From Eledone cirrhosa (Eukaryota), in NCBI GenBank assembly GCA_964016885.1, contig OZ024743.1, positions 107,756,001-107,820,000 on the forward strand: 64,000 bases of DNA, read 5' to 3'. The position numbers were made by a program, and so were the translations under genes. Numbering within the stretch: position 1 is the first letter of the stretch; every line of letters starts with the position of its first letter. The notes under the pieces were generated by a model. The model made no database searches. It was given only the letters and a program-made list of their open reading frames with translations, and was not told where the DNA came from. Below, one piece after another: positions 1-63,000 of the stretch.

Positions 1-8
1 CTTTAGCC

Positions 9-145
9 CTGAAATAGCCTTCGAAACGGCTTGAGCTCTGCCGCCGGGGGTCATACTTTCTCTCTATTACCCACTCTACTACCCTAAGTATTGAGTACTC
101 TGGTGCTTTATGGTCCAACTGGTAACTACCACAACTCCTTCGTTT
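9..145 (+). mobile_element. Family A short non-autonomous element (3' half of hammerhead plus PLE-type tail), ends in (TA)n
   Basis: GAAATAGCC(T/G)TCGAAACGGCTTGAGCTCTGCCG..GGGGTCATAC...GTATTGAGTACT...TCCTTCGTT(AT)n; the same sequence recurs near 17247, 17479, 30988, 42004, 51657, 52089 and 55111. Confidence 0.75.
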
Positions 146-2543: not shown

Positions 2544-2616
2544 TACCGAAACCCGGGATTGAACAGCGAACCTTTAGATCTTTAGTCTAACGCTCTACCA
2601 ACTGAGCTTTTTCGGC
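2544..2616 (-). pseudogene. tRNA-Phe-derived pseudogene, anticodon GAA->AAA
   Basis: Reverse complement GCCGAAAAAGCTCAGTTGGTAGAGCGTTAGACTAAAGATCTAAAGGTTCGCTGTTCAATCCCGGGTTTCGGTA (73 nt) aligns to metazoan tRNA-Phe; U8 lost and two mismatches in the T-stem. Confidence 0.85.
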
Positions 2617-9394: not shown

Positions 9395-10918
9395 TAATAA
9401 AAGGAATTCCAACTTTGTCTGATTTACTCGTTTTATTTACAATCCTTTAAAATTTATAATGGTATTAGAATGAAATAGTATGGTAGAATATTAAATGTTA
9501 AGTGTTAATTGAACAAGTACTTTCATGCTTTCACAATCTTCAGGCTCATAATGTGTGGTGACAGTCAAGTTTGCAATTTTCAACTGTAATGAGATGGGTA
9601 AATTTTGTGCCTTATATACAGTGAAAAGTGGCTCCAGAATGCTAAATCTTGCAAACTGTATTTCGACCAATCGGTGTGTCGTTTCACTGAATTACTAAAG
9701 CTGATTGGTTGAGCATGTCTAACGGCTACTAATTGGCCCTATCCAAAGCATCAATTGTTTTGCTATTTTTAGAAATGATGAAAATAGCATTTTCTAGTAA
9801 TCATCACCATCAACATCACTTTTATTATTATTATTATTGTTGTTGTTGTCGTTGTTAGTGGTCTTAGTCATAGTCATAGTAGGAGACCCAATTATTATTG
9901 TTCATTTAGCTTGGGTTTGAATTTATCAATAACATTCTTTTCTTTGATTTTTTTCTTGATTTCACTTGAGCTGTGTAATTTGTAGAATATTATAAATATT
10001 CCCTGACCACATGTTGCTAGATCGTTACTTAGGGCTATCTGACGGACATTTGGGTCTCTGATTTGCTGTCGGTGTACCCGTGCACGATCCGATAGTGCAT
10101 TTCCAGGTTGACCGACATATAGATCTTCACAATTCGGGCATTTAATGCAGTAAATTAGATTTCTGCTTTTGCAGTTCATATTTGCATTTGGGAATATTTT
10201 TCCAGTTTTTGTTTTTATATATTGACCGGCGTGTATGGATTGACATGTGCCACATCGACTATCATTGCATTTAGATACAGTGAATGATTGGTATTTGTTG
10301 TTAAGGTCAAACAATGCCTTTGTTAGTAATTGCTTCACATTTTTCGGCTGTCTTTTGCTAAGAGTCAAAGATCGATCTGTGATTAAGCCTTTTAATTCAT
10401 TACTTTGAGCAATGATCGGTAGGTTTTCTGTGGCAGTGTTGAAGATATTCTGGTGACATGGGTTATGTGTCATTATAAATGGTATGACCAGTTCTTGGTT
10501 TCTTCTTCCTTGGGTTGTCCTAAGTTGTTGTATAGGTATGTTTATAGCCCGCTGTACACCATTTTCTATAAGTAGAGATGGGTATTTTTGTTTGAGCAAA
10601 AATTCTCTTAGTTCTGTTAGGCGTTTGTACCTGTTAGGCGTTTGTACCTGTTAGGTGTTTTTACCTGGTATTCGTATCTTCTACAATGGTACAAATTCTT
10701 CTGGCTAGGCAGTATGGGATGTTGCCTTTTGTATGAGGTGGATGGCACGACTTAAAATTCAGATATCGTTGGGTGTCTGTGTGTTTATAATATATATCCG
10801 TGGTAATGGTGGTGTCGTTTTTGATTATCATTATATCTAGGAATGGTAATTTGGTACTACACCCATCTCTCCAATTCACAAAAGAGATGAGTAGGACCAA
10901 ATTACCATTCCTAGATAT
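9395..10918 (-). mobile_element. Penelope-like element (Neptune-type Cys linker), 5'-truncated, degenerate
   Basis: KLPFLDI..DIYYKHTDTQRYLNFKSCHP (RT thumb); KCNDSRCGTC; NLIYCIKCPNCEDLYVGQ (GIY-YIG); a 17-bp triplication at ~10614-10660 breaks the frame; last ~62 bp are inverted. Confidence 0.9.
9510..9548 (-). ncRNA. Minimal type-I hammerhead ribozyme motif in PLE 3' pseudo-LTR
   Basis: UGAGC-CUGAAGA-U-UGU(GAAA)GCA-U-GAAA-GUAC-UU-GUUCA: intact core, 5-bp stem I, palindromic stem III AGUACU. Confidence 0.8.
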
Positions 10919-12770
10919 AGGCTTCGGATCCGTGTTCAGGAGCTGGTTTGCTGCAATGCATAACAGCAACATCTGCTCAAGGGTTAAGGTGAACGGCTAC
11001 CTCTCGGAGCCGTTCCATATCACGCGATGCATTCGACAGGGATGCCCTCTCTCTTCCCTTCTGTACGTATTGACTCTCGAGCCATTACTGCGGAAATTGG
11101 AGCTATTGCAGGGCATCCCTCTGGAACCGGGACTGCGGAAAGCGGCGTCGGTCTACGCCGACGACGTTACAGTAATGGTGTCGAACGCCTTGCAAATCGA
11201 GGAGGTCGGGACCTTACTGAATGAATACGAAAGGTTCACAGGAGCGAAGCTGAACCGGGGCAAGTCCATCGCTTTGCAACTCGGATCGTGGAGAGGCAAA
11301 TCGATGCCTTCCAATGGCGTCGTCTGACGCTGGACGGAAGGACCAGTAAATCTGCTCGGGGTCTGGTTTGGTCCGGACCTCCAGGTGGAGAAGAACTGGA
11401 ACGAGGTGTCGGCCAAGGTGTTTGCACTCACCCAGAAGTGGGCGGAGTGTAAACTATCATTGAAAGGTCGAGCGGAGGTGGCGAACACTTTTATAGCGTC
11501 CGCCATCTACTACCGCTTGACCGTCGTGCCTTGTCCAGCCAAAACGCTCGGCAAAATGGAGCGCGCGCTCTTCCAATTCCTTTGAAAAAGGCGGGGTCCT
11601 TTGGTGAGAAGATCCATCTGCTGCCAACGACCTGGCAACGGGGGGCTGAGGATGCCGTGGCCGACGATGTGCAAACACGCGCTCAGGCTGCGGCATCTCT
11701 ACTTATTCCTCACCGGACAACCGGCGGGGGCCCCGTTCGTGAGGCGAGCCTTCCCACGACTCGTCTCGCTGACCGAGCTGCAGTCCTGGGTCAAGCAAAG
11801 ACCGAGAAAAATGGGCGACTTGCACATCGAATGTGCTCAGGCACTCACATCCCTCTGGCAGGCGGACCCGGCGATCAGTGGAGAGTCCACTTCATCATTC
11901 TATAGAGAGGTGATCCGCAGCAAGTGCGACGACGTGCTCGGTGAAACTCTGGGCGTAGAGGAAGACGAACTGGCCAGTCTGTTCGGTAGGACCTTCCGCC
12001 CGGGACCGATGGACAACTTCCCAAAGTCCCTGGCCTGGCAGTGTTACCGAGGAGCTCTACCAGTTCGAGACAAGCTCTACAGACATGGGCGCCCGGGCAG
12101 GGACCCTTCGAAAAAGATCTGTCCGAGGTGCGTACGAGACGAAGAAGCCGTTCCGCATGCATTCATACACTGTGGGGCTATGTGGAACGACTATTGTCGC
12201 GGGTGGGACCAATCCAGTGGACCACCGAGTCCATTGTCATGATCAAACCGCCACCCTCCTTCAAAAACGAAGGAGAGGCGGTTTTCCTTTGTGTGATAGC
12301 TATGGCGAAAGAGGTTGTATGGTGGACAAGTTTGAAAGGGCTGAGGTCAGACACCTTTCTCTCCGGCCAACAACTGATTATTTTTTTCAAATACCACTTT
12401 GGAAGAAGAATCAGGATGGAGAGAGAGGTGCTGTACCCCAGCAAGTTTTATGAAAGGTGGGTGAAAGTGGTGAGAATGGCCCGAGTGAATGGGTTTCTCT
12501 CTATATAGGTTGAGGAAAAAGGGGAGGCGAGGAAAGGAAAACAAACTCTTCGTACTCCTGGAGATGAGGGTTGCACATTTTTTTTTCGGGGGTATGTGTT
12601 ACCCATATATAATGTTTCCCCCTATTGGGGAAAATCGATTAATTTTTAAATTGCATTTGTGATAATATATTGCACATTTTTATTGTATGTAAACTTCCTC
12701 CTTTGTATTTGTCCCCTTCTTTTGTGCCCCTGTGGCTAATAAAGAAACATATCTATCTATCTATCTATAG
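10919..12770 (+). mobile_element. Tx1/L1-clade LINE, 5'-truncated, with stops
   Basis: RQGCPLSSLLY, YADDV, LSLKGRAEVAN, GGLRMP, C-terminal CPRC..E..HAFIHC; 3' AATAAAGAAA followed by (TCTA)n; homologous to 60150-64000. Confidence 0.92.
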
Positions 12771-17168: not shown

Positions 17169-17246
<78 letters not shown>

Positions 17247-17248
<2 letters not shown>

Positions 17249-17372
17249 AGAAATAGCTGTCGAAACGGCTTGAGCTCTGCCGGCGGGGTTAAATATCTTC
17301 CTATAGAGTGGGTAATAGAAAAATGTTTAATCCCGACGGCAGAGCTCAGGCCGTTTCGACAGGTATTTCTGG
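17247..17372. repeat. Family A inverted pair, heads facing outward
   Basis: CCAGAAATAGCTGTCGAAACGGC... mirrored by ...GCCGTTTCGACAGGTATTTCTGG; flanks (TG)n and (CA)n are mirrored too. Confidence 0.8.
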
Positions 17373-17386
17373 ACACACACACACAA

Positions 17387-17478
<92 letters not shown>

Positions 17479-17481
<3 letters not shown>

Positions 17482-17590
17482 AGTAAGTAAGACCCCGACG
17501 GCTGAGCTCAAGCCGTTTCGACGGCTAATTCTGTATTGAGTACTTTGGTGCGTTATGGTCCACCTGGTTCCTTACCACTTTTCCTTCGCT
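17479..17590. mobile_element. Family A element: inverted 5' part joined to forward 3' part
   Basis: 17479-17532 is the reverse complement of the family A head; 17533-17590 is the tail GTATTGAGTACT...TTCCTTCG; TA tracts on both sides. Confidence 0.75.
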
Positions 17591-17616: not shown

Positions 17617-17830
17617 AAATAAAATGATCGAGAATCGAAACTTCGGCCCACGAAATAACGAAAAACAATCTCCGAAATGTGCGGCAAATTGCTCAATGGT
17701 TCGGATGAACCAGAGCTATAACTAACGTTTAATACCAAACACACTGAGACGATGTTTAAGCAATCATTCGCACAGCAAAAAAATACGATCAAGTAATTCG
17801 GGTCAAACAAATAAAAATATACATGATTGA

Positions 17831-20556: not shown

Positions 20557-20604
<48 letters not shown>

Positions 20605-20608
<4 letters not shown>

Positions 20609-22912
20609 TTCGCGGATGTAGAGGTTATCTCCCTTGTCTAATGCCATGTGCGTTTTTCACTGGTGGTTAGCCCCTTATCCGCTAGGAAAAAAGCTCGTTG
20701 AGAAAGTAAACTCCGTTCCTCTTGCTCTAGTAGGCTTTTATATTTATATGTGAGCTGATAGAGTACAGTCTAAGGATTTACAGAAACCCAAGAAGCTAGA
20801 TTTAACACCTTTCTAGAGGGTCCGGGTATGATTTTACATTCATTTAAATTATTGATGTATTGTTTTATTGATATTTTTTATCTGTTTGTCCCGAATCTTC
20901 TATTATCGATTTTTTATCGTATGGTTGATTGTAGACTTGTTCTATATGTGACGGTATTTTAACGATAGTTATAGCTCTGATTCATCTGAATTATTGAGCC
21001 CTCTGCCGCTCATTTCGAATTTTGTTTATCGTGAACTCGTGCGCCGATTTTTCGATACTCGATCTTTCTAATATTTTTAGCTCTGGACATAGCTATCCAC
21101 CAGTTAATTTTATTGCTATTTTTTTGTCGATTCTATTGAGTGATGAATAGCTTTTGTTTTATTTTAATATGTCTATTGAGCACTCTTATTCGATATGTGT
21201 ATTTCCACATTCCCTCGAATAGTTTTCGCGGATGTAGAGGTTATCTCCCTTGTCTAATGCCATGTGCGTTTTTCACTGGTGGTTAGCCCCTTATCCGCTA
21301 GGAAAAAAGCTCGTTGAGAAAGTAAACTCCGTTCCTCTTGCTCTAGTAGGCTTTTATATTTATATGTGAGCTGATAGAGTACAGTCTAAGGATTTACAGA
21401 AACCCAAGAAGCTAGATTTAACACCTTTCTAGAGGGTCCGGGTATGATTTTACATTCATTTAAATTATTGATGTATTGTTTTATTGATATTCTTTATCTG
21501 TTTGTCCCGAATCTTCTATTATCGATTTTTTATCGTATGGTTGATTGTAGACTTGTTCTATATGTGACGGTATTTTAACGATAGTTATAGCTCTGATTCA
21601 TCTGAATTATTGAGCCCTCTGCCGCTCATTTCGAATTTTGTTTATCGTGAACTCGTGCGCCGATTTTTCGATACTCGATCTTTCTAATATTTTTAGCTCT
21701 GGACATAGCTATCCACCAGTTAATTTTATTGCTCATTTTTTGTCGATTCTATTGAGTGATGAATAGCTTTTGTTTTATTTTAACATGTCTATTGAGCACT
21801 CTTATTCGATATGTGTATTTCGACATTCCCTCGAATAGTTTTCGCGGATGTAGAGGTTATCTCCCTTGTCTAATGGATTGTGCGTTTTTCACTGGTGGTT
21901 AGCCCCTTATCCGCTAGGAAAAAAGCTCGTTGAGAAAGTAAACTCCGTTCCTCTTGCTCTAGTAGGCTTTTATATTTATATGTGAGCTGATAGAGTACAG
22001 TCTAAGGATTTACAGAAACCCAAGAAGCTAGATTTAACACCTTTCTAGTGGGTCCGGGTATGATTTTACATTCATTTAAATTATTGATGTATTGTTTTAT
22101 TGATATTTTTTATCTGTTTGTCCCGAATCTTCTATTATCGATTTTTTATCGTATGGTTGATTGTAGACTTGTTCTATATGTGACGGTATTTTAACGATAG
22201 TTATAGCTCTGATTCATCTGAATTATTGAGCCCTCTGCCGCTCATTTCGAATTTTGTTTATCGTGAACTCGTGCGCCGATTTTTCGATACTCGATCTTTC
22301 TAATATTTTTAGCTCTGGACATAGCTATCCACCAGTTAATTTTATTGCTCATTTTTTGTCGATTCTATTGAGTGATGAATAGCTTTCGTTTTATTTTAAC
22401 ATGTCTATTGAGCACTCTTATTCGATATGTGTATTTCCACATTCCCTCGAATAGTTTTCGCGGATGTAGAGGTTATCTCCCTTGTCTAATGCCATGTGCG
22501 TTTTTCACTGGTGGTTAGCCCCTTATCCGCTAGGAAAAAAGCTCGTTGAGAAAGTAAACTCCGTTCCTCTTGCTCTAGTAGGCTTTTATATTTATATGTG
22601 AGCTGATAGAGTACAGTCTAAGGATTTACAGAAACCCAAGAAGCTAGATTTAACACCTTTCTAGAGGGTCCGGGTATGATTTTACATTCATTTAAATTAT
22701 TGATGTATTGTTTTATTGATATTTTTTATCTGTTTGTCCCGAATCTTCTATTATCGATTTTTTATCGTATGGTTGATTGTAGACTTGTTCTATATGCGAC
22801 GGTATTTTAACGATAGTTATAGCTCTGATTCATCTGAATTATTGAGCCCTCTGCCGCTCATTTCGAATTTTGTTTATCGTGAACTCGTGCGCCGATTTTT
22901 CGATACTCGATC

Positions 22913-22919
<7 letters not shown>
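20605..22919 (+). repeat. Tandem array of a 616-bp unit, 3.76 copies, ~99% identical, inside a (TA)n tract
   Basis: Unit start AGTTTTCGCGGATG at 20605, 21221, 21837 and 22453; the last unit is truncated at 22919. Confidence 0.97.
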
Positions 22920-22980
<61 letters not shown>

Positions 22981-23350: not shown

Positions 23351-23454
23351 TTTTTACATATACCCAACGGTACCAAGGATTCCACACATTTTCTAATGTA
23401 TGAGTCAGAGCGCGTATGTATGAGTGTATATATATATATATATATATGTATATC

Positions 23455-25879
23455 CTCAAACACTACCCCGACCTTCGCCCCTCCCCCATTCCCTCCACCC
23501 CCACCCTCCTTCGCCACGCCGAGCTGGTCGTCACCATCAATTGTTTCTCCTTCTCGGGTGAGTTTTACCAACAGGTCACGGGGGTAGCCACGGGTACAAG
23601 AATGGGCCCGAACTATGCCAACCTTTTTGTTGGCCATGTTGAGGCCCAAATCTTTGCCCAGTACACCGGCCCCACGCCCGAACTGTACGGTCGTTACATT
23701 GACGACTGTATCGGAGCAACGACCCTCACCCGAGAACAGCTCGACTCTTTTCTCTCCTTCTTCTGCTCCTTCCACCCCTCCCTCCACTTCACCACCTCTA
23801 TCTCCACCACCCACGTCCACTTCTTAGACATCTCCGTCGCCTTCGACCCGTCCCACCCCTCCCTCGTCACCTCCGCCTTCTTCAAATCCACCGACTCCCA
23901 CTCTTACCTCGACTTCACCTATTCCCACCCCACCCACACTAAACACTCCATTCCCTACTCCCAACTTCTCAGGATCCGCCGCCTCTGTAGCCGAGATGGT
24001 GACTTCGAGTCCCAGGCCCTTTCCCTAGTCAGCCATTTCATCCGCAGAGGTTACCCCCCCTCTCTCGTCCACACCGCTCTCACCCGCGCCCGTGCTGTCC
24101 CCCGCTCCACCACCCTCACCCCACGCCACCGCACACCCACCCACCGTCTCCCCTTCCCCATCACCTACCACCCCTCCACCTTACCACTCCACGGCACCAT
24201 CCGCCGCCTCTTCCGACGCCTCCAGTCCGACCCCTTCACCTCCCACATCTTCCCAACCCCACCACTCCCCTCCTTCAAACGCGCACGCAATATCCGCACC
24301 CTCTTCGTCCACAGCTCCCAACCCCCCAACCCACGCTTTGTTTCCCCCCCGGTTCCTTTCCCTGTTCTAGGCCCCGCTGCAACACCTGTCCCCACATCAC
24401 CAACACCACCACCTTCCAGGGTCCCAACGGCCACTCTCTCTCGGTCCGGCATGCCTTCCGCTGCACCTCCTCCAACCCAGTTTACGGACTTCGCTGTCGG
24501 ACAGACGGGACGTCGCCTGGCGGACCGATTCACTGAGCACCTCCGGGATATTCGTCTCGGTGGTAGTTCCCCCATCGCCCGCCACTTTGGTGGCCCTGGA
24601 CATTCCGCACGCCATCTCACAGTCTGTGGCCTACTCCAATGCCACGGAACACCCGCCAATCGCCTTAGAGTCGAACAAAGAACTATCTTCATCTTACAGA
24701 CCCACACTCCCCCCGGCCTGAACTCCCCACCCTTATTCCTTTAGCATTCGACTTTCCCCTCCCCCCACACTTACCCCCCACTAACACCACTAACACCCAT
24801 TCATCAAACTACACACACACCAGTACACCACACTCCCTCCATAGAACTACACACACCCTTCTCTCCCCGCTCCACCCACACCCTCGCTCCACACTCACTC
24901 ATCCCACTAACACCTCTACTAATACACACACACACACCCTCCTCACTCCAACTTTCACACCTACCCATCCTCGCCCCTTTACCATTCCACTGACTGCTGC
25001 TATGCCCTCTGACCACCTCCCAGCACAAACAGACATACAGTACTCCCACTGCTTGACCACTTTCTGTTGCGCGCACACCCCACATCTCTCCTCTGCCGAC
25101 CATCTCTTCATGGAATACTCTTATGTGGAACTTGACCACCACAGAATCCACTAAACATCATAGGATTTTACCAACTTTTCAACCATCCTCTTACGGAATC
25201 ATCTATATAACTCACCGACACACACACCCCCAAAATTGTTTTCCTGCACACGCCACCTACACCCACAACACGCTTATACCCCACACACACGTGCTTTCCA
25301 CCACATATTTACACCCTAAGCCTCCTGATTCCTCTCCCCCACCCCTCTATCCACACACGCACATACACTCCGACCTGCAACCCCCCCCCCCACACCTCTT
25401 CCTGAACATGCAACCCCGTTCTTCTCCCAACCCTTACTTTCACATACACACACACACACGTACACCTACACACACACACCACCTTCAGCCCTCCCCGGTC
25501 GGACACCCCGCCTCCCTCTCCCCACTCCACCCACCACCACCCCTACACACCCCACACCCTTCCACCACCTGTTTTACCCCCCTTTTAATTTCAGTTTATT
25601 TTGATCCTACTTTTATATTTAAATTATTTCATTCCTTGTATTTTGATCATGCTTTATTTTTATTTTTATTTTTAATTTCATTCTCACCGTTTCCTTTCGC
25701 TATATGTCTCTCCACCACTCCCCTACACACCCTTTGAACTCTGTTCCCACACACTTCTCACCTGAGGAAGGGCTTATGCCCGAAAAGTCGTTCCCCACCA
25801 CCACCCCACTCTCCAGAGCGTGAAATTAATAAACATCCGTTGTACTGCCTCTCTGTTTTGTTCCTGTTCAAATTTTTCC

Positions 25880-26507: not shown

Positions 26508-29500
26508 ATTGTTAGGGTGCAAGTAGATTTTAAAAAATTAAACATTTTAATTGTTTTGAAGTGGTAGAATACTAATCCAAACATTTTTCAATATATAAAC
26601 AAATCATGAGTTATAATATTATATATATAATGTATATATTTATATTTTAAGGAATTAAGGTTGTAAGTGAATTATGTAAGTGAATTATATAAGTGAATTG
26701 TATAAACATCTATATAATTGTAAGTCAATTATATAGATGTTTATACAAATAAATAAAAATATAAATATTATTGGTGATTACACATGCTGCTATGAATTCA
26801 AATATAATTTAAGGGTTACGAAGGATATGTGTTTACATTTTCAATATACAGTTAAGAAAAAGACGTAGTTCGAATTTTATTATAGAACTTTTTGTACATT
26901 CAAATAGTTCAATCAAGATAGAAAACATTAAGTTAACGAAAATTATAGAGACTTTAGTATTTATGTTGTTAAGTGAGAGGATGCTTCATGCGCGCTAGAT
27001 TATAAAGGAAAAGACAACTCCGATGTTTATTTACGTTAGATTTTAAAAATTACTTAAAATGTATGTGGAGAAAATGTTATATATTACTTTATGTATGATT
27101 ATAAGGTATTTTATATTACATGTTTTCAAAGATAAGAATTTCTTTTATATATGTATTTATATATTATCTATATAGTCAATTAGGAAGGAAAATATTAATA
27201 GAGACCTCATGAGTGTAATTAGAAAACTATCACGAAAATGGATATATTTCAAAATATGAATTAAGAAATATCAATTAAACAATATAAAGAATATCAATTA
27301 AGAAAACTAAGAAGAATATCAATTTGAAAAGAAAATCATTTGTAAAAAATTATATTACATAAAAAGAAAAATATCATTTCAAAATCACAACTAAACATTG
27401 ACAGAAGACATAGATAATGTGAATAAGTGAATTATAAACTATATATTATAAATACTTCGGAAAGTCATAGTTTGGCGATGTCTGCAGGAACTGAATATTT
27501 CTTTTTTTAGGTTGATAGACTTTTGGCAAGTGAGTATATAACATTTTTTCAATACATAAATGACAGGTTCTTGAGAGAGCCATATTGAGGTATGCGGATG
27601 CTTTCGAAACCGTTCCCCAAGAGATTGAATAATCAATATTATTGTCATTTAAGTGCCAAATTAGATGTGAAAGTGATGTGGAAAGTTTTTTATCGGACCT
27701 ATTAAATGTATGTTTATGATTATCCCAGTGTTCTTTAAATTTTGTAGAGGTGGCTCCTATATAATTATATATTCTATGTCTAGTTATAACTGTGCATTGG
27801 TATACTAAGTTTTTATCTAGGCAATTTTTCTGTAAAGGGCAATTAGATTCATTTCTACAGTTACATTTACGAGAGTTAGTGTTATTAGGAACGTTACTAT
27901 TATGATTAGTATTAATAGTGTTGTTAGTAATATTAATATTGTTATCTTGGTTTAATTTGTTTAGGTTTAAATTTAAGTTTCTATTTATATGTTGTGCTAT
28001 GTTCATGGTAGTAGAGTAAGATAGTTTTTTATAGTATGTCTGTTAAAAATAGAGTGATATATGTGGGATTTAAGAAAACATTTATCTAATGCCTTTAAAA
28101 ATAGTTTTGCTACAGGTGTTTTAACTCCTAATGAGAATGGGGGAGAGTACCAAATAATATTTCTAGTTCTAGTTCTTTTGTTTGGTTTACTATTTAAGTT
28201 AAATTGTTTATTACTATTATTATATTGAATTTTAGGAAGATTTTGCATGTTTTTGTTATCTATGTGTTTAATTTTATAGCCAGCTCTATGTAAAGCATCA
28301 TTGTAATATTCTGCCTTATTATCAAAAATATTTTTATTAGCTGAAATGCGTGAAATTCGTAGCTGGACACTATTGACGATAGTATGTTTTATATTATCAA
28401 GATGGTTAGAATTGAAGCTTACATAATTTAGGTTATCATTAATTTTATGGAAAGGATAAAATAGACCTGAGTTAAGGTTTAAAGTTACATCTAAGAAGTT
28501 AACAGTTTTATTATTACTTTCGATTTCTAATTTAAGGTTGTAGTTATTGAAAAGTTCTATGATAGATTTCCTTTTCCTGTTAAGTTCACTATTGCTTTGG
28601 TTTTCGATTAAAAGTAACATATCGCCGCGATATATACCTCCGGTCATCTCTGGCATTTTACTATGTAGTACATTAAGAATAAATAATCCGACGAGGTCTG
28701 TTACTTGAGCTGAGTCCGATGATCCTATAGTGATATCAAAGTTATTCTGTCTATCAGCCCTTGTCCAGAGATGGTTTTAAATTCGATTATTGTTTTACGT
28801 GCTGTTAGAATGTTATTTATTTCATCACTAGATAAGTCTGTATATTTAGAAGCGTAGATAAGTGTCTTATTAAGTAAGCTAGGGGTAATTAAAGAGTAGT
28901 AATTTGCAATATCCATTTGAATAAATATTTTCTTATGATTTAATTTAATGTCTGCAAAACACTCTATTACTTCATTTGTACAGTTCCATAGTTTAAGATG
29001 TGATTTTAGGTTAAGTACTGGTATAATCCTATCTAGTATATGTTCGCTAATTATGCCGAAGTCAGACTTAGATGATGCGATGAGTCTCACTGGTAGTTCA
29101 ACTTCAACAATTTCGATTTTCTAGTTATAAAAGGTTCTGTCTTATTTTGAATGCCTAATTTATAAATGATTTCCGAAGCTTCTTTATAGATCTTCACTTG
29201 ATGTTTTTTGTTATAATTTTTCCAAAGTTCCTTCAATATTAAGTTATTATAAGTGTCCTTTTCGATACCGTATAAAGTATTGGTTTTGTCCGATTTTACA
29301 AGGATCTTCTTTGTTTTTTCGAGATTGTCTATTTTGTTTTTGAGGCCTTTGTGGTATTCCTAGCCAATAAATTGGTTCCTTTTAAATTTAACGTTCTGTA
29401 TTATGGAGATTATTTCATTTTCAAATTCGGCTAAAAGTTTGTTGAAAGGTCGATTTTTCCTTGATTTGAAAATAAGATCAAAATTATATTTTGATTTATT

Positions 29501-30939: not shown

Positions 30940-30987
<48 letters not shown>

Positions 30988-30990
<3 letters not shown>

Positions 30991-31121
30991 AAAAAGTATG
31001 ACCCCGCCGGCAGAGATCAAGCCGTTTCGAGGCTATCATACTTTTTCCTACCCACTCTACTACCCTAATTATTGAGTACTGTGGTGCGTTATGGTCCAGG
31101 TTCCTTACCACAATTCCTTCG

Positions 31122-31123
<2 letters not shown>
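30988..31123. mobile_element. Family A element: inverted head plus forward tail
   Basis: GGAAAAAGTATGACCCCGCCGGCAGAGATCAAGCCGTTTCGAGGCTA followed by TCATACTTTTTCC...TTCCTTCGTT(AT)n. Confidence 0.75.
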
Positions 31124-31159
<36 letters not shown>

Positions 31160-41941: not shown

Positions 41942-42003
<62 letters not shown>

Positions 42004-42005
<2 letters not shown>

Positions 42006-42197
42006 CGAAGGAAATGTGGTAAGGAACCAGGTGGACCATAACGCACCAAAGTACTCAATACTTGAGGTAGTAGAGTGGGTAATAGGAACCAGTAAGACCC
42101 CGACAGCTGAGCTCAAGCCGTTTCGACGGCTAATTCATGAATTCAATGAATTAGCCGTCGAAACGGCTTGAGCTCAGCTGTCGGGGTCTTACTGGTT

Positions 42198-42200
<3 letters not shown>
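42004..42200. mobile_element. Family A palindrome (long arm minus, short arm plus)
   Basis: Centre GCTAATTCATGAATTCAATGAATTAGC; short arm stops at GGTTCC|TA. Confidence 0.85.
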
Positions 42201-42239
<39 letters not shown>

Positions 42240-42671
42240 TCAAATTAAAAAACGGTGCTGATGTCTCACATTAACACTTTGCAATTTCATGAGCTCAAGG
42301 AATACATTTCCGGGCTCTTAATGTATTCACACCACCATGGGCGGCGAAACGCCCAGGTCTTTTTTCTATACCATGCGTGTTTCCTTAGTTATCTGATATA
42401 TTTTAGAAGTGCGGATCGTATTGTTAGACACCCGCCGATCAGTCATCTACAATATGCATTATTCAATTTTGTGAAGAATTATACTCTACCTTGAGGACGT
42501 CCAGGTGTAATAATCATTATTGGAGGGTTAGTATAGTTTAATTTTTTTCTTTTGTATTCACCTTTCCTTTCGTAGACAATATGTTCTTCACTCTGGTGGT
42601 TTTTAATCCCCTATTATTGAACACATATCTCTGTGGTACTTCTTTCTATATGGTGGTTTATACATATATAT

Positions 42672-42752
<81 letters not shown>

Positions 42753-42755
<3 letters not shown>

Positions 42756-45700
42756 GCCCACCACACTCCACCTCTCCCCCGACCCACACCCCTACCCAAT
42801 CTCCACCCTCCACCTCACCCCTCACCACACCCTCCCTTCCCTCCCCAAACACCCAAACCCCACCCCTTGTTGTCACCATACCCCCTGACCTCCCCCTCTC
42901 CTCACCTGAGCGCTCACTCCTTAGTAGAGGCCTTCGCTTCATACCCCACACTCCGCTCAGCGACGAGTTCCGCACCCGAACGGAAGTCGAGCGGTTCGTG
43001 CGACGCACTAAGCTACAGGCACATTTCAGCCGAACGCCACCGGCTCCGGACGCCCCAGACCCGTTTCTCGCCCTGGGCCGACGACCATCTTCTTGGACGC
43101 CGGCCCCAGGGCAATTTAGCACCCTGGACGCCTTCGTCGATGCCAGCCGTAGCGCAGTAAATCGTTTCGACTTCTGCCACCGTTCCAAACGGCACAACAT
43201 CTCACGGGGCGAACTCCTCGCTCTCCGCTCCCTCCGTAGCCGAGATGACATCGTCATCAAACCGGCGGACAAGGGAGGCGCCGTGGTGGTATGGCGCGCG
43301 GATCTCTACACGGCCGAAGCCCTCAGGCAGCTCTGTAACCCCCTCTTTTACCGCCCTCTACCCTCCGATCCCACCCCCCTCTACCAACAACAAGTCTCCT
43401 CCACCATCAAATACCTTATCGCCTCCTCCCTCCTCCCCCCACCGCTTCCCACCTCATCGTCCGCACCCCCCGCACCCCCACCATCTACTTCCTCCCCAAA
43501 CTCCACAAACCCGACAACCCCGGCCGCCCCATCGTCTCCGCTTGCAACTGCCCCACCGAACTCATCTCCGCCTTTCTCGACTCCCTCCTCGCCGCCCTTG
43601 TCACCACCCTCCCCTCCCACATCTCCGACACCAACCACGCCCTGCGCCTTTTCGACTCCTTCACCTACCTTCACGGCTCTCAGCCATTCCTCTTCACCCC
43701 CTAGACATCAAGTCCCTCTATACCGTCATCCCCCACAGCGACGGCCTTCGCGCCCTCAAACACTACCTCGACCTTCGCCCCTCCCCCATTCCCTCCACCC
43801 CCACCCTCCTTCGCCTCTTGGAGCTGGTCCTCACCCTAAATTGTTTCTCCTTCACGGATGAGTTTTACCAACAGGTCACGGGGATAGCCATGGGCACAAG
43901 AATGGGCCCGAACTATGCCAAACTTTTTGTTGGCCATGTTGAGGCCCAAATCTTTGCCCAGTACACCGGCCCCACGCCCGAACTGTACGCTCGTTACATT
44001 GACGACTGTATCGGAGCCACGACCCTCACCCGAGTACAGCTCGACTCCTTTCTCTCCTTCTTCTGCTCCTTCCACCCCTCCCTCCACTTCACCACCTCTA
44101 TCTCCACCACCCACGTCCACTTCTTAGACATCTCCGTCGCCTTCGACCCCTCCCACCACTCTCTCGTCATCTCTGCCTTCTTCAAACCCACCGACTCCCA
44201 CTCTTACCTCGACTTCACCTCTTCCCACCCCACCCACACTAAACTCTCCATTCCCTACTCCCAACTTCTCAGGATCCGCCGCCTCTGTAGCCGTGATGCT
44301 GACTTCGAGTCCCAGGCCCTTTCCCTAGTCAGCCACTTCATCCGCAGAGGTTACCCCCCCCCCCCCCTCTCGTCTACACCGCTCTCACCCGCGCCCGTGC
44401 TATCCCCCGCTCCACCACCCTCACCCCACGCCACCGCACACCCACCCACCGTCTCCCCTTCCCCATCACCTACCACCCCTCCACCTTACCACTCCACCGC
44501 ACCATCCGCCGCCTCTTCCGACGCCTCCAGTCCGACCCCTTCACCTCCCACATCTTCCCAACTCCACCACTCCCCTCCTTCAAACGCGCACGCAATCTCC
44601 GCACCCTCCTCGTCCACAGCTCCCTACCCCCCAACCCACGCTCCGGTCCCCCCCCGGTTCCTTCCCCTGTTCTAGGCCCCGCTGCAACACCTGTCCTCAC
44701 ATCACCCACACCACCACCTTCCAGGGTCCCAACGGCCACTCTCTCTCGGTCCGGCATGCCTTCCGCTGCACCTCCTCCAACCTAGTCTACGGACTTCGTT
44801 GCACGGAGTGCAGCGCGACTTATGTCGGACAGACGGGACGTCGCCTGGCGGACCGAGTCACGGAACACCTCCGGGATATTCGTCTCGGGGGCAGTTCCCC
44901 CATCGCCCGCCACTTTGGTGGCCCTGGACACTCCGCACGCCATCTCACAGTCTGTTGCCTACTCCAGTTCCACGGAACACCCGCCCATCGCCTTACGGTC
45001 GAACAACGCACTATCTTCATCTTACAGACCCACACTCCCCGCGGCCTGAACTCCCCACCCTTATTTCTTTAGCGTTCGACCGCCCCCCTCCCACTACACT
45101 TATCCCCCACTAACACCACTAACACACCCCTCCTTTTCACCGCCCACCCCACACTAACAATACTAACACCTCCACCCCTCATCTAACCACCTTCCCCAAC
45201 TAACATACTAACATCCCTTCCCTCCCCTCGTCTCCTCCTCCCCCCTCCTTATCACACGCACACACGCACCCACTTACACCACCCACCCCACACGCAACTA
45301 ACATCACTAACACACCCCAACCCCACGCACACGTACCCACACACCCACGTACACCACCAACTCTACACACCCTACCACCACTGACCCCCACTCACACCTG
45401 CATTCCACCCCTCCCCACCTCCCGTATACTAACACCCACTAACACCTCTTCACCAAACTACACACACACCAGTACACCACACTCCCTCCATAGAACCACA
45501 CACACCCTTCTCTCCCCGCTCCACACTCACTCATCCCACTAACACCCCTACTAATACACACACACACACACACACACCCTCCTCACTCCAACTCTCACAC
45601 CTACCCATCCTCGCCTCCCTACCATTCCGCCGACTGCTGCTATGCCCTTCCGACCACCTCTCAGCACCAACTGACCACAGCACTCCCACTGCTGACCACT

Positions 45701-46536
45701 TCCTGTTGCGCGCGCACCCCACATCTCTCCTCTTCCGACCACCGCTTCTTGGATTACCCACACACGAAATTGACTTCTAACCAAATCTCCAAACATCCGT
45801 GGAACTTACCAACTTTTCAACCATCCTCTTACACCATCACCTATATAACTCACCCACACACACAGCCCCCAAGCATTTTTTTTTATCCACACGCCACCCA
45901 CACCCACAACACGCTTAAACCACACACACGTGCTTCCCACCACATATTTACACCCTCAGCCTCCTGATTCCTCTCCCCCCACCCCCCTATCCACACACGC
46001 ACAGACACTCCGACCCACAAAAACACCTCCCCACACACACCTTCCTGAACATGCAACCCCGTTCTTCCCCCAACCCTCACTTTCACATACACACACACGC
46101 ACACCTAACCACACACACCACCTTCAGCCCTCCCCGCTCGGACACCCCGTCTCCCTCTCCCCACTCCACCCGCCACCACCCCTACTCACCCCACACCCTT
46201 CCACCACCTGTTTACCCCCCTTTTAATTTCAGTTTATTTTGATCATGCCTTTATTTTTAAATTTTCTCCTTCCTTGTATTTTGATCATGCTTTATTTTTA
46301 TTTATTATATTTTTTGTCTTTATTTGTTAATTTTTCATTCGCATCGTTTCCTTTCGCTATATGTCTCTCCACCACTCCCCTACACACCTTTTGAACTCTG
46401 TTCCCACACACTTCTCACCTGAAGAAGGGCTTATGCCCGAAACGTCGTCCCCCACCTACCCGCCACTCTCCTGCGCGTGAATTTAATAAACATTTATTGT
46501 ACTGCCTCTCTGTTCTGTCCCTGTTCAACTTTTCAT
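42753..46536 (+). mobile_element. Neptune-type Penelope-like element, longer copy 2, frameshifted in C-runs
   Basis: LLSRGLRFIP, IVIKPADKGGAVVVW, YFLPKLHKP..PGRPIVS, DIKSLYT.IPH, GIAMGTRMGP, RYIDD, PC.RPRCNTC, VYGLRCTECSATYVGQT; closely similar to 23455-25881. Confidence 0.95.
46416..46448 (+). ncRNA. Minimal type-I hammerhead ribozyme motif in Neptune pseudo-LTR
   Basis: CUGAAGA-A-GGGC(UUAU)GCCC-GAAACGUC; palindromic ACGU stem III, GUC cleavage triplet, but only a 2-bp stem I. Confidence 0.8.
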
Positions 46537-46614
<78 letters not shown>

Positions 46615-47454
46615 GAGTTTAATGGATTGTAACATTTCTTTAGTGTTGGTTCACCAACTTGAGCATTCTCTGTATACGTGGGTCCGTTTAATTATAGTAT
46701 GTTGTGTTGTACATTTAGTGTTATACTATGGTCGGTTTCCTTCAGAAGCAGAGTGTAATATTAATAAGGAAGAACGAGGTGTCAAAATATCATCATTAAC
46801 TTTATTCAGGTGTGACCCACGTCACAACTGCATGAGGTTAATGATGATAACTGACAACTCGTTTCTACTTATTATTTATATTTACATATATATGTGTGTA
46901 TTGGTTAATTATTTGTGTTTGTTTAATAACGTCTAGTCGAGAGTTTTATTCGGTTTGTGGAAGGAAATTTATTCCTTTGCTCAAAATTTGAATCTCGACC
47001 GCCAAAACCGGGGGTTACCTCCCTTTGGAAAAAAACCACGTGATAGCCAGCAGTTTTACTGCTACAATTCACACCCGACTGCTGCCTAGAACGGAAGACC
47101 TGTTGATAAAGTGAATCCACTGTTCTATGATCCAAAGCCAAAAGCTTAGATACTGCGCAAGTGGAATTGTTGATTTCGGATTTCATAGAAACCTATCTGA
47201 GATATTGCATAATATCACTGAGATGATCCAGGTTTGTCAAATTATCCTGAGATGGTTTCTCGTTGATTTGGTCCTTATGGCTGTCTCACCGGTCGCGGTC
47301 TTCAATTTGTCAAGCTTTCTAAACGTATGTTATTACACTAAGGTGACACTACCTTATCGAGTGCTTTGCTGCACATTCTGGATTGCATTTCATTAGCTTG
47401 GCCACAGCCAGAGCTTCGATTTTACTGAACTTCCATTTGAATACACACACACAT

Positions 47455-51624: not shown

Positions 51625-51656
<32 letters not shown>

Positions 51657-51657
<1 letters not shown>

Positions 51658-51841
51658 GGAACGAGTAGGACCCCGACGGCTGAGCTCAAGCCGTTTCGAC
51701 GGCTAATTCTGAATTAGCCGTCGAAACGGCTTGAGCTCAGCCGTCGAGGTCCTACTCGTTCCTATTACCCACTCTACTACCCTAAGTATTGAGTACTTTT
51801 GTGCGTTATGGTCCACCTGGTTCCTTACCACATTTCCTTCG

Positions 51842-51843
<2 letters not shown>
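51657..51843. mobile_element. Family A palindrome
   Basis: Centre GACGGCTAATTC-T-GAATTAGCCGTC; ~52-bp mirrored arms, then the tail to (TA)n. Confidence 0.88.
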
Positions 51844-51912
<69 letters not shown>

Positions 51913-52088
51913 TATACATTCACACATATATAAATACATATATATATGTATATATATTTATATATACATATATACATATATCTGGAAGATCACTGATGAC
52001 GGATGCCTTAACTTCTGCTCGAATTTTATTCATACATATATATATTATGTGTCTGTGTGAGGGTGTATACAAATATATATATATATAT

Positions 52089-52274
52089 AGGGAAAAGTAT
52101 GACCCCGACGGCAGAGCTCAAGCCGTTTCGACGGCTATTTCAGAAATAGCCGTCGAAACGGCTTGAGCTCTGCCGTCGGGGTCATACTGTTTCCTATTAC
52201 CCACTCTACTACCCTAAGTAATGAGTACTCTGGTGCGTTATGGTCCATCTTGTTCCTTACCACAACTCATTCGT

Positions 52275-52275
<1 letters not shown>
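52089..52275. mobile_element. Family A palindrome
   Basis: Centre GACGGCTATTT-CAG-AAATAGCCGTC; ~50-bp mirrored arms, then the tail to (TA)n. Confidence 0.88.
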
Positions 52276-52306
<31 letters not shown>

Positions 52307-52327
52307 TTGGTGCTCTGAAATAGCGAT

Positions 52328-52832
52328 ATATATATGAATGTATATATAGTGTATTCTGCAATACACTGTATGCTTAATTAAAGGCATTTTGAAGACCTTA
52401 CGCTATTGTTTTAGAGTAGTGACAGTCTCACTTACTTTAAATTTTCAGCAAACAGGTGGAGATAAGGCTGACAGTACTCTGTTTCGTACTATTTGGTACT
52501 TATCAAAGCTAAGAACTCCACCCATTTGCTGAAAATCATAAATGTTTGATTCTTATAGATTTCTAGTAATAATCAGGAACTGATTATACAGTTCCTGATT
52601 ATTACTAGAATTCTATAAGAATCAAACATCCGTGATTTTCAGTAGACGGGTGGAGTACTTAGCTTTGATAAGTACCAGATAGTACGAAACAGAGCTCTGT
52701 CAACTTTATCTCCCCCTGTTTGCTGAAAATTTAAAGTAAGTGAGACTGTCACTACTCTAAAACAATAGCGTAAGGTCTTTAAAATGCTTTTAATTAAGCA
52801 TACAGTGTATTGCAGAATACACTATATATACA

Positions 52833-52842
<10 letters not shown>
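52328..52842. repeat. Family E ~500-bp fold-back with U3:A8 hammerhead motifs (52467-52509 minus, 52661-52705 plus)
   Basis: Arms ~255 bp around spacer ATTATA at 52583-52588; UUGAUAA-GUAC(N6)GUAC-GAAA-CAGAGCUCUG-UC. Confidence 0.9.
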
Positions 52843-52870
<28 letters not shown>

Positions 52871-54698: not shown

Positions 54699-55110
54699 GT
54701 TATCATATACATAAAATTAAATTAAAGATATATATATGTTGCAACTGTTCACTTTTAAGCTCAATGAAGAATTAATAAATTAAAATCAAAAGATCAGAGC
54801 ATTATATTATAAATTATGTCTATAGAATCAATCAGATATTAAAATATATACTATTTCTTCTTCTAATCAGCATAATTAACCATATACAAAATCAAATCTA
54901 GCAAGCTTTAACAATAAATTTTCTTACGGGGAAATCTCTGACAAGCAATTGATCGTAGCCTCTTCGCGGCGGCTCCGTTCCACTATTTATCAAACATTTC
55001 GGCAGCATGCAGAATCCGATCAAACATACTATCAACCACACATAATTAGTAGTAAAATTAAACTTAGAAGAAATGCGCACATACCGTAATTGAGATATAA
55101 TCTTCTAAGT

Positions 55111-55245
55111 CCAGAATTAGCCGTCGAAACGGCTTGAGCTCAGCTGTCGGGGTCTTACTGGTTCCTATTACCCACTCTACTACCTCAAGTATTGAGTACT
55201 TTGGTGCGTTATGGTCCACCTGGTTCCTTACCACATTTCCTTCGT
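55111..55245 (+). mobile_element. Family A monomer
   Basis: CCAGAATTAGCCGTCGAAACGGC...TTCCTTCGTT(AT)n; nearly identical to the long arm at 42004. Confidence 0.85.
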
Positions 55246-55262
55246 TATATATATATATATAT

Positions 55263-60099: not shown

Positions 60100-63000
60100 T
60101 ATATATATATATAGATAGATAGATACATAGATACATAGATAGATAGATATATTTCTTTATTAGCCACAAGTGCGCACAAGAAAAGGGGACAATACAAAGA
60201 CATACCGGGGATTTTACATACAGTCGTGTAAAAAATATAAAACCAAACAATTACAACAATCGAAATCACCAATAGGAGGGAGGCGCCACAAATTGGTTGT
60301 TTAATATCCCGTCGATAGAACAACCCTCAACTCTAGGAGCGTGTTGTGCAAGTGCTCCTTTCTTCCTTTTGCTCTCTTCTTCAACCTACAGGCTTATAAA
60401 CAGAGAAGGCCCAAACACTCGGGCCATTTTCGCTTCATTCACCCACCTTTCAGTAAATTTATTGGGGTGCACTGCCTCTCTCTCCACTCTGATTCTCCTT
60501 CTGAAGTGATACTTAAAGAAGGGAATCAATTGTTGTCCGGAGAGAAAGGCATATAACTTCTTTCACCATAACCATCGTACGGAGGAAAACGGCCTCTCTT
60601 TCATTTCTGAAAGAGGCTGGCGGTTTGATCCTTACTGTTTGCGCATCATCAGCCACGGCATTCTCAGCCCTCCGTTGGAAGGGTGTTGACAGCAGACGGA
60701 TCTCCTCACCAGCGGAGCCTGTTTCTTCCACATAAACTGGAAGAGCATGCGTTCCATCTTGGCGAGGTGTTCACGGAGACAAGGCACGACAGTCAAGCGG
60801 TAGTAGATAACGGACGCTATGAAATTGTTCGCCACCTCCACTCGAGCTTTCAAGGACAGTTTGCAGCCTGCCCACTTCTGGGTGAGTGCAAACACGTTGG
60901 CCGTGACCTCGTTCCAGTTTTTCTCCACCTGGAAGTCTGGACCGAACCAGACCCCGAGCAATTTCACCCGTCCGCCCGTCCAGCGTCCAACGACGCTGTC
61001 GAACGTCATCGGTTTGCCTCTCCACGTACCGAGTTGCAAACCGACAGACTTGTCCTGGTTTAGTTTTGCTCCGTCAGCGTTTCGTATTCTTTCAGTAAGT
61101 TTCCGATCACCCCGATTTCCGAGGTGCTCGACACCATTACCGTCACGTCATCGGCATAAGCCGACGCCGCTTTGCGCAGTCCCGGTTCTAGAGGGATGCC
61201 CTGTAGCAGCTCCAATTTCAGCAGTAGTAGCTCTAGAGTCAATACATAGAGAATGGAGGAGAGAGGGCACCCTTGTCGAATGGAACGCGTGATTGAGAAC
61301 GGCTCCGATAAGTAGCCGTTTACCTTGACCCTCGAGCAGATGCTGGTGTGCATCGCCTCGATCCAGCCTCTGAAAACGGGACCGAAACCGGCCGCCTTGA
61401 GAACCGCTTCCAAGTATCGATGGTCGACCCTATCGAAATGCCTTAGACTGATCCAAATTGATCAGAGCCCCACCGAAGCCGGGTTTACTACTCACCCTCT
61501 CTATGATGTATCGCATGAGGTGGAGGTTGTCGTGTATGAACCTGGTCGGGATTGCACACGTTTGCGCTTTCACTACCAGGTTCTCGACGACAAGCGCCAA
61601 CCTCGTCGCTAGCACCTTGGCCAAAATCTTTAACTCTGTGTTGAGCAGTGTTATGAGCCTGAAGTTGTTAATTTCGTCGCCCTTGTTCTCGTCTTTCCCG
61701 AACAGCGTTACTACGCCCTTGCCTGCAGAACTGGGAATTCTCCCGTTCTGCTGCCAATTGCAGTAGACGGCTTCTAGGACGCCAGAAAACAAGTCCGGCA
61801 TGCCTATGTAAAACTCATAGGGTAGACCATCTAGACCGGGTGACTTGCGTTTCCCGCAGCGGCCCAGAGCGTCCCTTATCTCAGTGTCCGTGATCGGTCT
61901 TTCGCAGAACTCGGCGTCCGTGTTCGAGAGACGCGACAGGCCGTCGAGGTATGAACTAAAGTCCATTGCCCCGTTCGGCTCACCGTTGTTCTGCTCAAAC
62001 AGCCCCGCAAAGTGCTGCTGAAAGGCCGCGCACATTTGCTTGAGGTCAAGTAGCACGCGTCCGTTTTGGTCTTTCAAAGACCGAATCGTGGACTTGTTGC
62101 CACTTTTCGCCTCCGCCACTTGGGCCCTGCTGACAGCTTTCGCTCCTTCGTTTTCTAGAGCACTTGTTTTGGTTCTGACCACGCAGCCTTCGTGTTTCGC
62201 ATCGAAGAACTGGTCCAGTGCCGTTCTCGACGCTAACACTCTAGCCGCGTTGCCACTTCTAAGTTCCTCCTCTACCTTGGCTACTAGTTCTCTTTCTATT
62301 TTGTTTTTCTCTAAGGCTAACTCTCTGCTAAAACCTATCGATTCTATTCTAATTGCTTTCTTGAGAGAGTACCACCAGTTATTGTTGACGATCTCTCCCG
62401 TTAACTGTTGCTTGACTAGTCTACTTATCCGTTCACTGTAAGCTTTACCTGCCGGCAACGACACGTTCAGCTTCCAGTGTCCGGGACCTTGTCTATGTAT
62501 TCTATCACGGTTGACTAAGCAGACGACTAATTTGTGATCTGAATAGGCAACCATGTGCATTGATGGACAGCTTAACATCTCCTTGTCCCTTTCTCTAATG
62601 AAGAACCAATCTAAATACGATCTAGATGTCCCGTTGCGGTTTACCCACGTCCACTGTGGTGCAGTCAGAAAATCCAGTCGATACCTATCGGCCATTTGGA
62701 ATTGGCCGATTAAAGTTTTGAGGCCGTTTCACCCACCTCTAATGGGACATGCTCCCACATAGTCCCATCTTGCATCTAGGATACCATTCCAGTGCCCCAC
62801 TAAAAGTAAGGAGCGAGACGTTCCCAGAAAAGACTCTAGACGCTTAAAGAAGTCTGGCCGTGATTGCGATTGCCCGGTCGGGGCATAAACGTCCACCAGT
62901 CTGAAGGCTCCACCTCCATTACTTTTCACGTCTAGGACTACCAGTCCAAGTGTACTTGCTGTACTTCGACGTCCAGGTTCTTCCGAAACATGACAGCCAT

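Follow-up and report, generated by a model that had tools for sequence, protein, structure and literature searches.

Repeat loci in the window

The window, a stretch of 64,000 nucleotides of Eledone cirrhosa DNA (GenBank assembly GCA_964016885.1, contig OZ024743.1, positions 107,756,001 to 107,820,000), contains a family of short repeats whose arms lie singly or in inverted pairs, one arm of a pair commonly carrying a tail that the other lacks (Table 1). With up to two mismatches allowed, GCCGTCGAAACGGC matches the window 11 times, compared with 0.08 matches expected by chance. Element positions are numbered on the natural copy L061, taken as reference, with -1 as the last element base before (TA)n, that is, the A of the last TA. 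In this numbering the tail-less arm ends at an internal TTCC/TA site at -83, with the TA at -82/-81.

A sequence-only reading of the window had listed eight loci (at 9, 17247, 17479, 30988, 42004, 51657, 52089 and 55111) as half-hammerheads mirrored at the predicted stem II loop. All eight are present, and the shared motif is found in the window loci, in degenerate form at 17247 (GCTGTC) and 30988 (GCC-TC). As that reading had noted, CUGANGA is missing and the ribozyme core is absent upstream of every window copy, and the short arm ends at TTCC/TA before merging into (TA)n. The three palindromes it described exist, and a fourth lies at locus 9, where the partner arm falls just left of the window. 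The mirror centres do join arms head to head, but imperfectly, since the arm ends differ and fillers intervene in some. Likewise, the common start point applies to one arm per locus, but the tailed arm begins at -59 in locus 17479 and at -95 in locus 30988. Locus 17247 consists of two tail-less arms placed tail to tail, and at 17479 (17477–17586) the two arms share no sequence at all.

Table 1. Arms of the repeat family and ribozyme parts within them, by position in the window.
Feature	Position	Strand	Remarks
Tailed arm from about -143	2–144	+	Inverted partner (to -140) left of the window
Two tail-less arms, both from -139, tail to tail	17245–17304; 17304–17374	+; -	
Tail-less arm to -136	17477–17533	-	Joined to tail piece from -59, 17533–17586 (+)
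Tail-less arm to -131 (-) joined to tailed arm from -95 (+)	30986–31124	-; +	
Tailed arm to -134	42003–42136	-	Followed by an 11-nt filler and a tail-less arm to -134, 42148–42202 (+)
Tail-less inverted arm, -136 to -81	51655–51711	-	Begins at internal TTCC/TA site
Tailed arm, -134 to -1	51711–51844	+	B-type subfamily
Type-I hammerhead, putative 3′ half	51712–51749	+	Assigned from sequence; complete motif in long copies
Stem II 3′ strand, GAAA and stem III (locus 51657)	GAAA 51723–51726; stem III 51727–51743	+	Stem III with GAGCUC loop
GUC and stem I 3′ strand (locus 51657)	Predicted cut after 51745	+	Stem I 3′ strand with one G to A change
80-nt tail between two putative TA priming sites	51765–51844	+	On one arm only
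Tail-less inverted arm, -134 to -81	52087–52141	-	
Tailed arm, -136 to -1	52141–52276	+	A-type subfamily; GAAA 52155–52158; predicted cut after 52177; tail 52197–52276
Single tailed arm	55108–55247	+	Starts exactly at A(-140), the putative transcription start

The parent element

By their continuity with longer genomic copies, the window repeats can be assigned to the 3′ end of a Hydra-clade Penelope-like element (PLE), of which they are 5′-truncated insertions. Many copies of the repeat occur in the 3.0-Gb genome; sequence further upstream was present in 3 of the first 30 loci, and a search with it yielded 30 loci that span the whole ribozyme motif. L061 combines a 2.3-kb tailed arm, bearing RT and GIY-YIG remnants, with a 1.0-kb inverted tail-less arm, while in L236 and L242 the tail leads into the 5′ UTR and ORF of a unit of 3,536 bp. 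Long copies thus comprise RT and GIY-YIG domains and a 3′ UTR with a complete hammerhead motif, which confirms the proposal that the repeats derive from a PLE pseudo-LTR carrying a type-I hammerhead. The predicted master copy, with the ribozyme 5′ half linked to an RT/EN ORF, was also found, although its core reads UUGANAA and not CUGANGA. In tandem copies the 80-nt tail continues into the 5′ UTR and ORF (357 exact tail-to-ORF junctions, some of them in arrays with a period of ~3.5 kb), so that the 3′ ends at -81 and -1 both fall on TA sites within the element, 80 nt from each other.

YRDD and IY..YIG motifs, as in EN+ PLEs, are continuous with the repeat in L061, L236 and L241, and L236, L240, L242 and L061 show the PLE architecture of partial tandems (pseudo-LTR), an inverted 5′-truncated copy and a tail at one end. 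Nearly all arm ends run into (TA)n. The features reported as diagnostic of the Hydra clade are RW[K/R], DKT, CxCX5C, CxxC and CxH motifs together with the lack of CCHH and GxKF (PMC8557442). The present protein contains RWR, DKT, CNCPDRSIC (the CxCX5C linker), CNLC (CxxC) and CKH (CxH), lacks CCHH and GxKF, and has one Cys in the GIY-YIG core; these diagnostic motifs point to placement in the Hydra clade, and motifs and domain order ruled out Neptune or Naiad membership. Protein homologues numbered 187 at E<=1e-10, nearly all of them unnamed, the sole named one among 120 matches listed being a hypothetical cephalopod protein. Six ORF pieces had no match in Pfam, and no full-length intact ORF was found in the 8 of 155 protein matches examined at 8 kb. 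An 837-aa frame considered as an ORF proved to be a microsatellite artefact. Each short subfamily has a matching long, ORF-bearing one.

Standard PLE insertions are reported to have an inverted 5′-truncated copy, a tail at one end and (TA)n targets (PMC8557442, PMC3846280). Hydra-clade families such as Hydra-1_Obim (Craig et al. 2021, PMC8557442) have all three, and share with the present element a C-terminal GIY-YIG domain, the clade motifs and a sense-strand hammerhead near the 3′ end. The published families are mostly below 3 kb, with tails of 30–40 nt, whereas the unit here is ~3.5 kb and the tail 80 nt; and in 26 of 26 Hydra-clade rows of File S2 of that study the ribozyme has a CUGA core and a loop II of 3–10 nt, unlike the UUGANAA core and ~30-nt loop II found here. 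The element represents a family distinct from Hydra-1_Obim by its different ribozyme, the proteins having been compared by eye only.

A hammerhead split by its own truncation point

Arms that run through upstream of the truncation point read, in order, stem I, UUGANAA, stem II (with a loop of ~30 nt), GAAA, stem III, GUC and stem I, with GAAA at -122 to -119 and the cleavage triplet GUC at -102 to -100. Three stems thus surround a conserved type-I core (3-8 pair, G5, A6, A9, GAAA, NUH). UUGANAA provides a U3-A8 pair, and position 7 occurs as C, A, G and T among 69 run-through arms; such freedom over four bases, with the rest held, is as expected of a selected core. CUGAGAA, a 3-8 mismatch, was seen in 5 of the 69 and CUGANGA in none. 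The constrained hammerhead fold lies within 0.3 (L061) and 1.4 (L242) kcal/mol of the minimum, and the unconstrained folds of two natural copies gave z-scores of -2.7 and 0.3. Within loop II, a 7-bp hairpin that overlaps the stop zone described below is predicted for the A subfamily; in the B subfamily the loop II fold is weak and different (z=0.3). An Rfam scan of the window returned no hammerhead among the best 150 of 167 matches listed, these being mostly microsatellite or hairpin noise.

Only 1 of 37 tailed arms has its 5′ end within 2 nt of the predicted cut (-99), very short tail-less arms being undetectable; the genome thus carries no trace of cleavage. As the sequence-only reading had supposed, RT does pass the cleavage site.

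The nearest ribozyme parallel comes from the Cercyon PLEs of Schistosoma (Cervera and de la Pena 2014, PMC4209133), which are described with U3-A8 covariation, a long helix II, a palindromic loop III and many single truncated motifs, some on opposite strands, all as here. In contrast to minimal Cercyon hammerheads, helix III is stable here (5 bp with a 9-nt loop), and the ribozyme 5′ half is missing altogether from most genomic arms. Surveys that demand CUGANGA and a complete motif would overlook the whole family.

Non-LTR retrozymes are made of tandem 170–400-nt monomers with a complete hammerhead in each. Copies in the window lack the core and occur singly or as inverted pairs, and mini-tandems of 257–274 bp are rare among the matches listed, so that the family does not fit a non-LTR retrozyme.

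A sharp 5′ boundary at A(-140)

Arm ends were collected from 1.37 Mb sampled at fixed positions, 200 kb adjoining the window and the window itself, leaving out 6 of 93 matches (sister family), 3 of 87 (neither arm class) and 1 of 84 (fragment edge); BLAST end positions are noisy at slippage repeats, as at L091 and window locus 42004. Among arms reaching -129 in all sampled DNA, window included, 56 of 67 end by -148. With the window loci excluded, 43 of 54 end within these 20 nt (37 of 44 in the scattered sample alone), compared with 7.8% stops expected from the background hazard at -60 to -128 (P about 1e-37), which confirms that the breakpoints are non-random. The modal stop is -140, the A of TTAGTC/TCAGTC; many arms end short, at -139 to -129, and others at -141 to -170. 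In three subfamilies with differing loop sequences, A(-140) sits 29–34 nt downstream of TATTTAA/TATTTAT, which we take to fit the TATA consensus, as we take TTAGTC/TCAGTC to fit that of an initiator.

An exact 23-mer beginning at A(-140) marks at least 27,951 arms genome-wide, only 3,873 of which also have the exact stem II 5′ strand, a count lowered by mutation across nine additional bases. The base before A(-140) in the 27,951 arms is T in 17,065, G in 5,420, C in 4,576 and A in 890; the partner arm or (TA)n would account for much of the T fraction (61%).

In a diverged sister family, all seven loci seen stop at the homologous A or one base short of it, two of them with G. This family (AGTTCGGATCTAGC, with stem III loop CGGAGCTCA; L003, L021, L077, L086, L186, L193 and L224) has boundary and tail as in the main family, and no run-through copy was found among the seven loci.

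The leading alternative to an RNA 5′ end at this position is that a longer RNA is blocked by structure or bound protein, so that RT halts in the distal stem II hairpin, much as telomerase halts at its template boundary, and two cDNAs are then joined. The overlap of the stop zone with the predicted A-subfamily hairpin agrees with such a block, and 11-nt slippage repeats at the boundary (L142, L091, NB 73623) would fit any hard boundary. Beyond -148, moreover, 4 of 11 arms stop by -168, a hazard of ~0.023 per nt compared with ~0.005 further up, which suggests a structural contribution. Nevertheless, the GC-rich stems I and III are crossed at a hazard of 0.004 per nt, with few stops at the feet of stable helices; the boundary stays unchanged in the B subfamily despite its weak and different fold; and a stall in a longer RNA predicts no single, specific extra G:C pair of the kind described below. 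We therefore consider a block unlikely, and the earlier suggestion that RT stalls in the ribozyme fold is not upheld.

An extra G:C pair at the boundary

Of 69 run-through arms, 68 have T as the template base at -141, a minor subfamily carrying a templated C; among ORF-junction copies with a base other than T before A(-140), C occurs in 27 of 31 rows, G in 4 and A in none. About 700 exact junctions of the form GGACT-N1,2-AGTCC occur. In a hand count of the first 50, one-base inserts between two arms that both reach -140 were G/C in 37 of 43 cases, an excess with P about 2e-20 even if 20% C templates are assumed; among the 7 two-base inserts, CG (G on both arms) occurred twice and GC never. Where arms abut (TA)n, the base before A was G in 18, C in 7, A in 4 and T in 71 of the first 100 of 777, a modest bias of G over C (18:7, P=0.04). 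Additionally, four close G-G pairs were present among the first 100 matches listed, compared with no C-C pair among the C matches listed. The direction of the extra base favours G on the sense strand, although the genome-wide G/C totals are weak alone, since both the last base of the partner arm and the templated-C subfamily contribute to them.

A non-templated G:C pair at the boundary points to the 5′ end of an RNA rather than to a stall. An extra G has been reported as the mark of capped, full-length L1 insertions (PMC11702581).

A defined but uncapped 5′ end, produced if a nuclease or an element protein cut a longer RNA in loop II and RT added a C, would explain both observations, run-off boundary and extra base, equally well. 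Some RTs are known to add a non-templated C on reaching the end of a template. This explanation gives no reason for an initiator-like A at 29–34 nt from a TATA-like box in three subfamilies, nor for the homologous A in the sister family, and we judge it somewhat less probable still than a block.

Probably two cDNAs rather than one

Arms differ by 5.1% within loci and by 11.9% between loci (21 pairs; 0 of 20,000 permutations), as the sequence-only reading had foreseen. The low divergence within loci indicates arms of the same subfamily and fits either one RNA or two sibling RNAs.

Its proposed route, in which a tail-primed cDNA stalls in the ribozyme, folds back on stem II and serves as its own template for the short arm, has precedents: snap-back is documented for R2 cDNA (PMC11371274), and self-priming was earlier proposed for PLE palindromes (PMC3846280). 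The likeness of arms within loci agrees with it, and it may explain some of the 14 of 36 junctions in which the tailed arm is the longer. A copy cannot be longer than its template, yet the tail-less arm is the longer in 16 of the 36, often reaching further 5′ than its putative template and doing so by kilobases at L238 and L240; 6 are equal. The split is 6 tail-less longer, 8 tailed longer and 4 equal for 18 position-sampled junctions, and 10, 6 and 2 for 18 found by searching; only 18 junctions, one from the sister family, were caught in the sampled DNA. At 17479, L235 and L238, moreover, the ribozyme region is missing from the tailed piece although present in its partner arm, so that at 17479 no ribozyme sequence is common to both arms. 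Most junctions show an overlap of 0–1 nt, too little for a hairpin primer, and some pairs of arms hardly overlap. The precise TTCC/TA end would need a separate cause, which a second priming site supplies. Snap-back as a general route is contradicted, and we consider it very improbable.

A better fit than snap-back is the joining of two cDNAs, one primed at -1 and one at -81 by opposite ends of the target: two priming sites explain both the fixed TTCC/TA end and the longer tail-less arms. Priming from both target strands, which the sequence-only reading had offered as its alternative, is thus the better-supported course.

It is likewise very unlikely that a short non-autonomous master (SINE-, MITE- or retrozyme-like), palindromic or already cut at -140, was amplified whole, for although the very high copy number and recurring junction types such as the GGACT-N1,2-AGTCC class fit such a master, junctions differ from locus to locus, every short subfamily matches a long ORF-bearing one, and long insertions have the same two 3′ ends.

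At L142, L091, L017 and NB 73623 the junctions contain tandem 10–12-nt repeats of boundary sequence, which look like RT realigning on two TAG triplets 11 nt apart, comparable to telomerase repeat addition.

Probable run-off at a start site inside the ribozyme

We favour, with a probability of roughly two in three, run-off of reverse transcription at a capped start in loop II combined with twin priming, the start being inferred from DNA. A promoter in the upstream pseudo-LTR would start the RNA at A(-140), so that its 5′ end would hold only the ribozyme 3′ half and could not cut in cis. The element protein, probably as a dimer, would nick a (TA)n tract on both strands, and the two DNA ends would prime on RNA of one subfamily, the first at -1 and the second at -81. 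The two cDNAs, some 140 and 60 nt long, would extend to the 5′ end of the RNA, where RT would often add one C opposite the cap, giving G on the sense strand. The cDNA ends would then be joined with small losses, microhomology, fillers or slippage repeats, yielding a head-to-head palindrome centred at -134 to -143, while the minority of long arms might arise from internal junctions of tandem transcripts, read-through RNA or template jumps. The ribozyme would be neither primer nor stop signal but would be split by the promoter, so that only 3′ and read-through copies could cleave.

We also put forward a broader reading of this PLE's replication as retrovirus-like, with a ribozyme-defined repeat, strong-stop cDNA and a strand jump; taken as a whole it is tentative, and we think it possible though on balance doubtful. 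With the promoter inside loop II, the capped 5′ hammerhead copy would be born disarmed and the complete 3′ copy would trim the RNA at -100, leaving a 41-nt terminal repeat (-140 to -100) suited to strand transfer. The cDNAs running off at the cap would correspond to strong-stop DNA and would have to jump via this repeat to the 3′ end in order to copy the ORF and rebuild the pseudo-LTR. The ~80% that failed to jump would be joined head to head, producing on the order of 100,000 half-hammerhead insertions. In retroviruses and LTR elements, a cDNA primed close to the 5′ end of the RNA runs off at the cap and so has a short, fixed length; this is the strong-stop DNA. Here, by contrast, the primer would be nicked target DNA instead of a tRNA, there would be two starts, and the short products would be integrated.

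Several steps have counterparts in known systems. The protein of the anole PLE Poseidon (PAc; Frangieh et al. 2024, PMC11167929) is reported to extend both target strands, to use uncleaved RNA as template, to have two internal RT starts that define the tail and to be a predicted dimer. Its RT starts lie inside the ORF, whereas here they lie in the 5′ UTR, and a 5′ boundary or cap signature is not among the features described in the accessible part of that report. In L1 twin priming (PMC11702581), a second cDNA from the other target end gives an inversion, as proposed here; L1 inverts the upstream part without duplication and from variable sites, whereas here the second site of priming does not vary and each arm repeats sequence of the other. 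PLE transcripts are reported to begin within the upstream pseudo-LTR (PMC2377424). Against the favoured reading stand the T before A(-140) in 61% of arms and the arm ends on either side of -140; furthermore, the Penelope element of D. virilis has a TATA-less promoter with a start upstream of the ribozyme (PMC2377424), and a plant retrozyme is likewise described as starting upstream of its ribozyme (PMC12029980).

PLEs are thus already known to have two internal RT starts, to leave head-to-head arms of which one bears a tail, and to insert at (TA)n; what looks new is the sharp boundary in loop II. In literature covered mostly through open access we found no PLE truncation hotspot with a start site or cap signature, and a retrozyme preprint (10.64898/2026.07.22.740005) does not address such a boundary in the accessible portion of its main text; older PLE reviews may mention fixed pseudo-LTR 5′ ends. 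The rebuilding of pseudo-LTRs, the origin of head-to-head repeats and the role of the hammerhead are treated as open in the accessible parts of PMC2377424, PMC8557442 and PMC11167929. Each of the exactly matching arms counted above records a single event, and together they show a boundary sharp to the nucleotide and what is probably the signature of a cap. If that reading of the start site is true, internal RT initiation is linked to short inverted repeats, a promoter lies within a ribozyme and splits it, and an RNA start inside the ribozyme reveals a missing step in PLE copying. The boundary also offers a specific test of strand transfer as opposed to tandem or circular templates.

Other repeats nearby

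A second, unrelated family with a similar layout, head-to-head arms in (TA)n, lies at window positions 52301–52845 and recurs at NB 45980–46990 (G000 C4, about 155 kb left of the window), L152 and L030. One arm carries a tail of ~26 nt, the unit of ~320 bp also occurs in tandem, and a narrow pattern scan found no hammerhead. In the window and at L030, its arms break 0–7 nt upstream of an initiator-like ATCAGTT, and this family could possibly serve as an independent test of the start-site model.

Mini-tandems of 257 and 273–274 bp (G000 C1:27009485–27010052 and C3:214146647–214147885) span the main element from the boundary region across the tail into the first part of the 5′ UTR, which points to another RT start some 115 nt beyond the tail. 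At 20603–22922 the window holds 3.8 tandem copies of a 616-bp unit, 99–100% identical and flanked by (TA)n, with a permuted single copy at L084 6245–6775 and a diverged piece at window 17620–17817; the unit might be retrozyme-like or might represent the pseudo-LTR of a different young PLE.

Another Hydra-like family is represented at 28003–28776 (-) by an RT fragment that shares 39% identity with the L236 protein, and further PLE-family remnants at 23404–24744 (+), 42542–45072 (+), 8014–8832 (-) and 9895–10650 (-) show DKG or YxDD motifs and Cys-containing GIY-YIG ends. A tRNA-like match above the Rfam threshold at 2544–2616 (-) is possibly a SINE head, and LINE-type endonuclease/RT remnants at 61430–62728 (-) and 10963–11535 form a long inverted pair of 83–84% identity.
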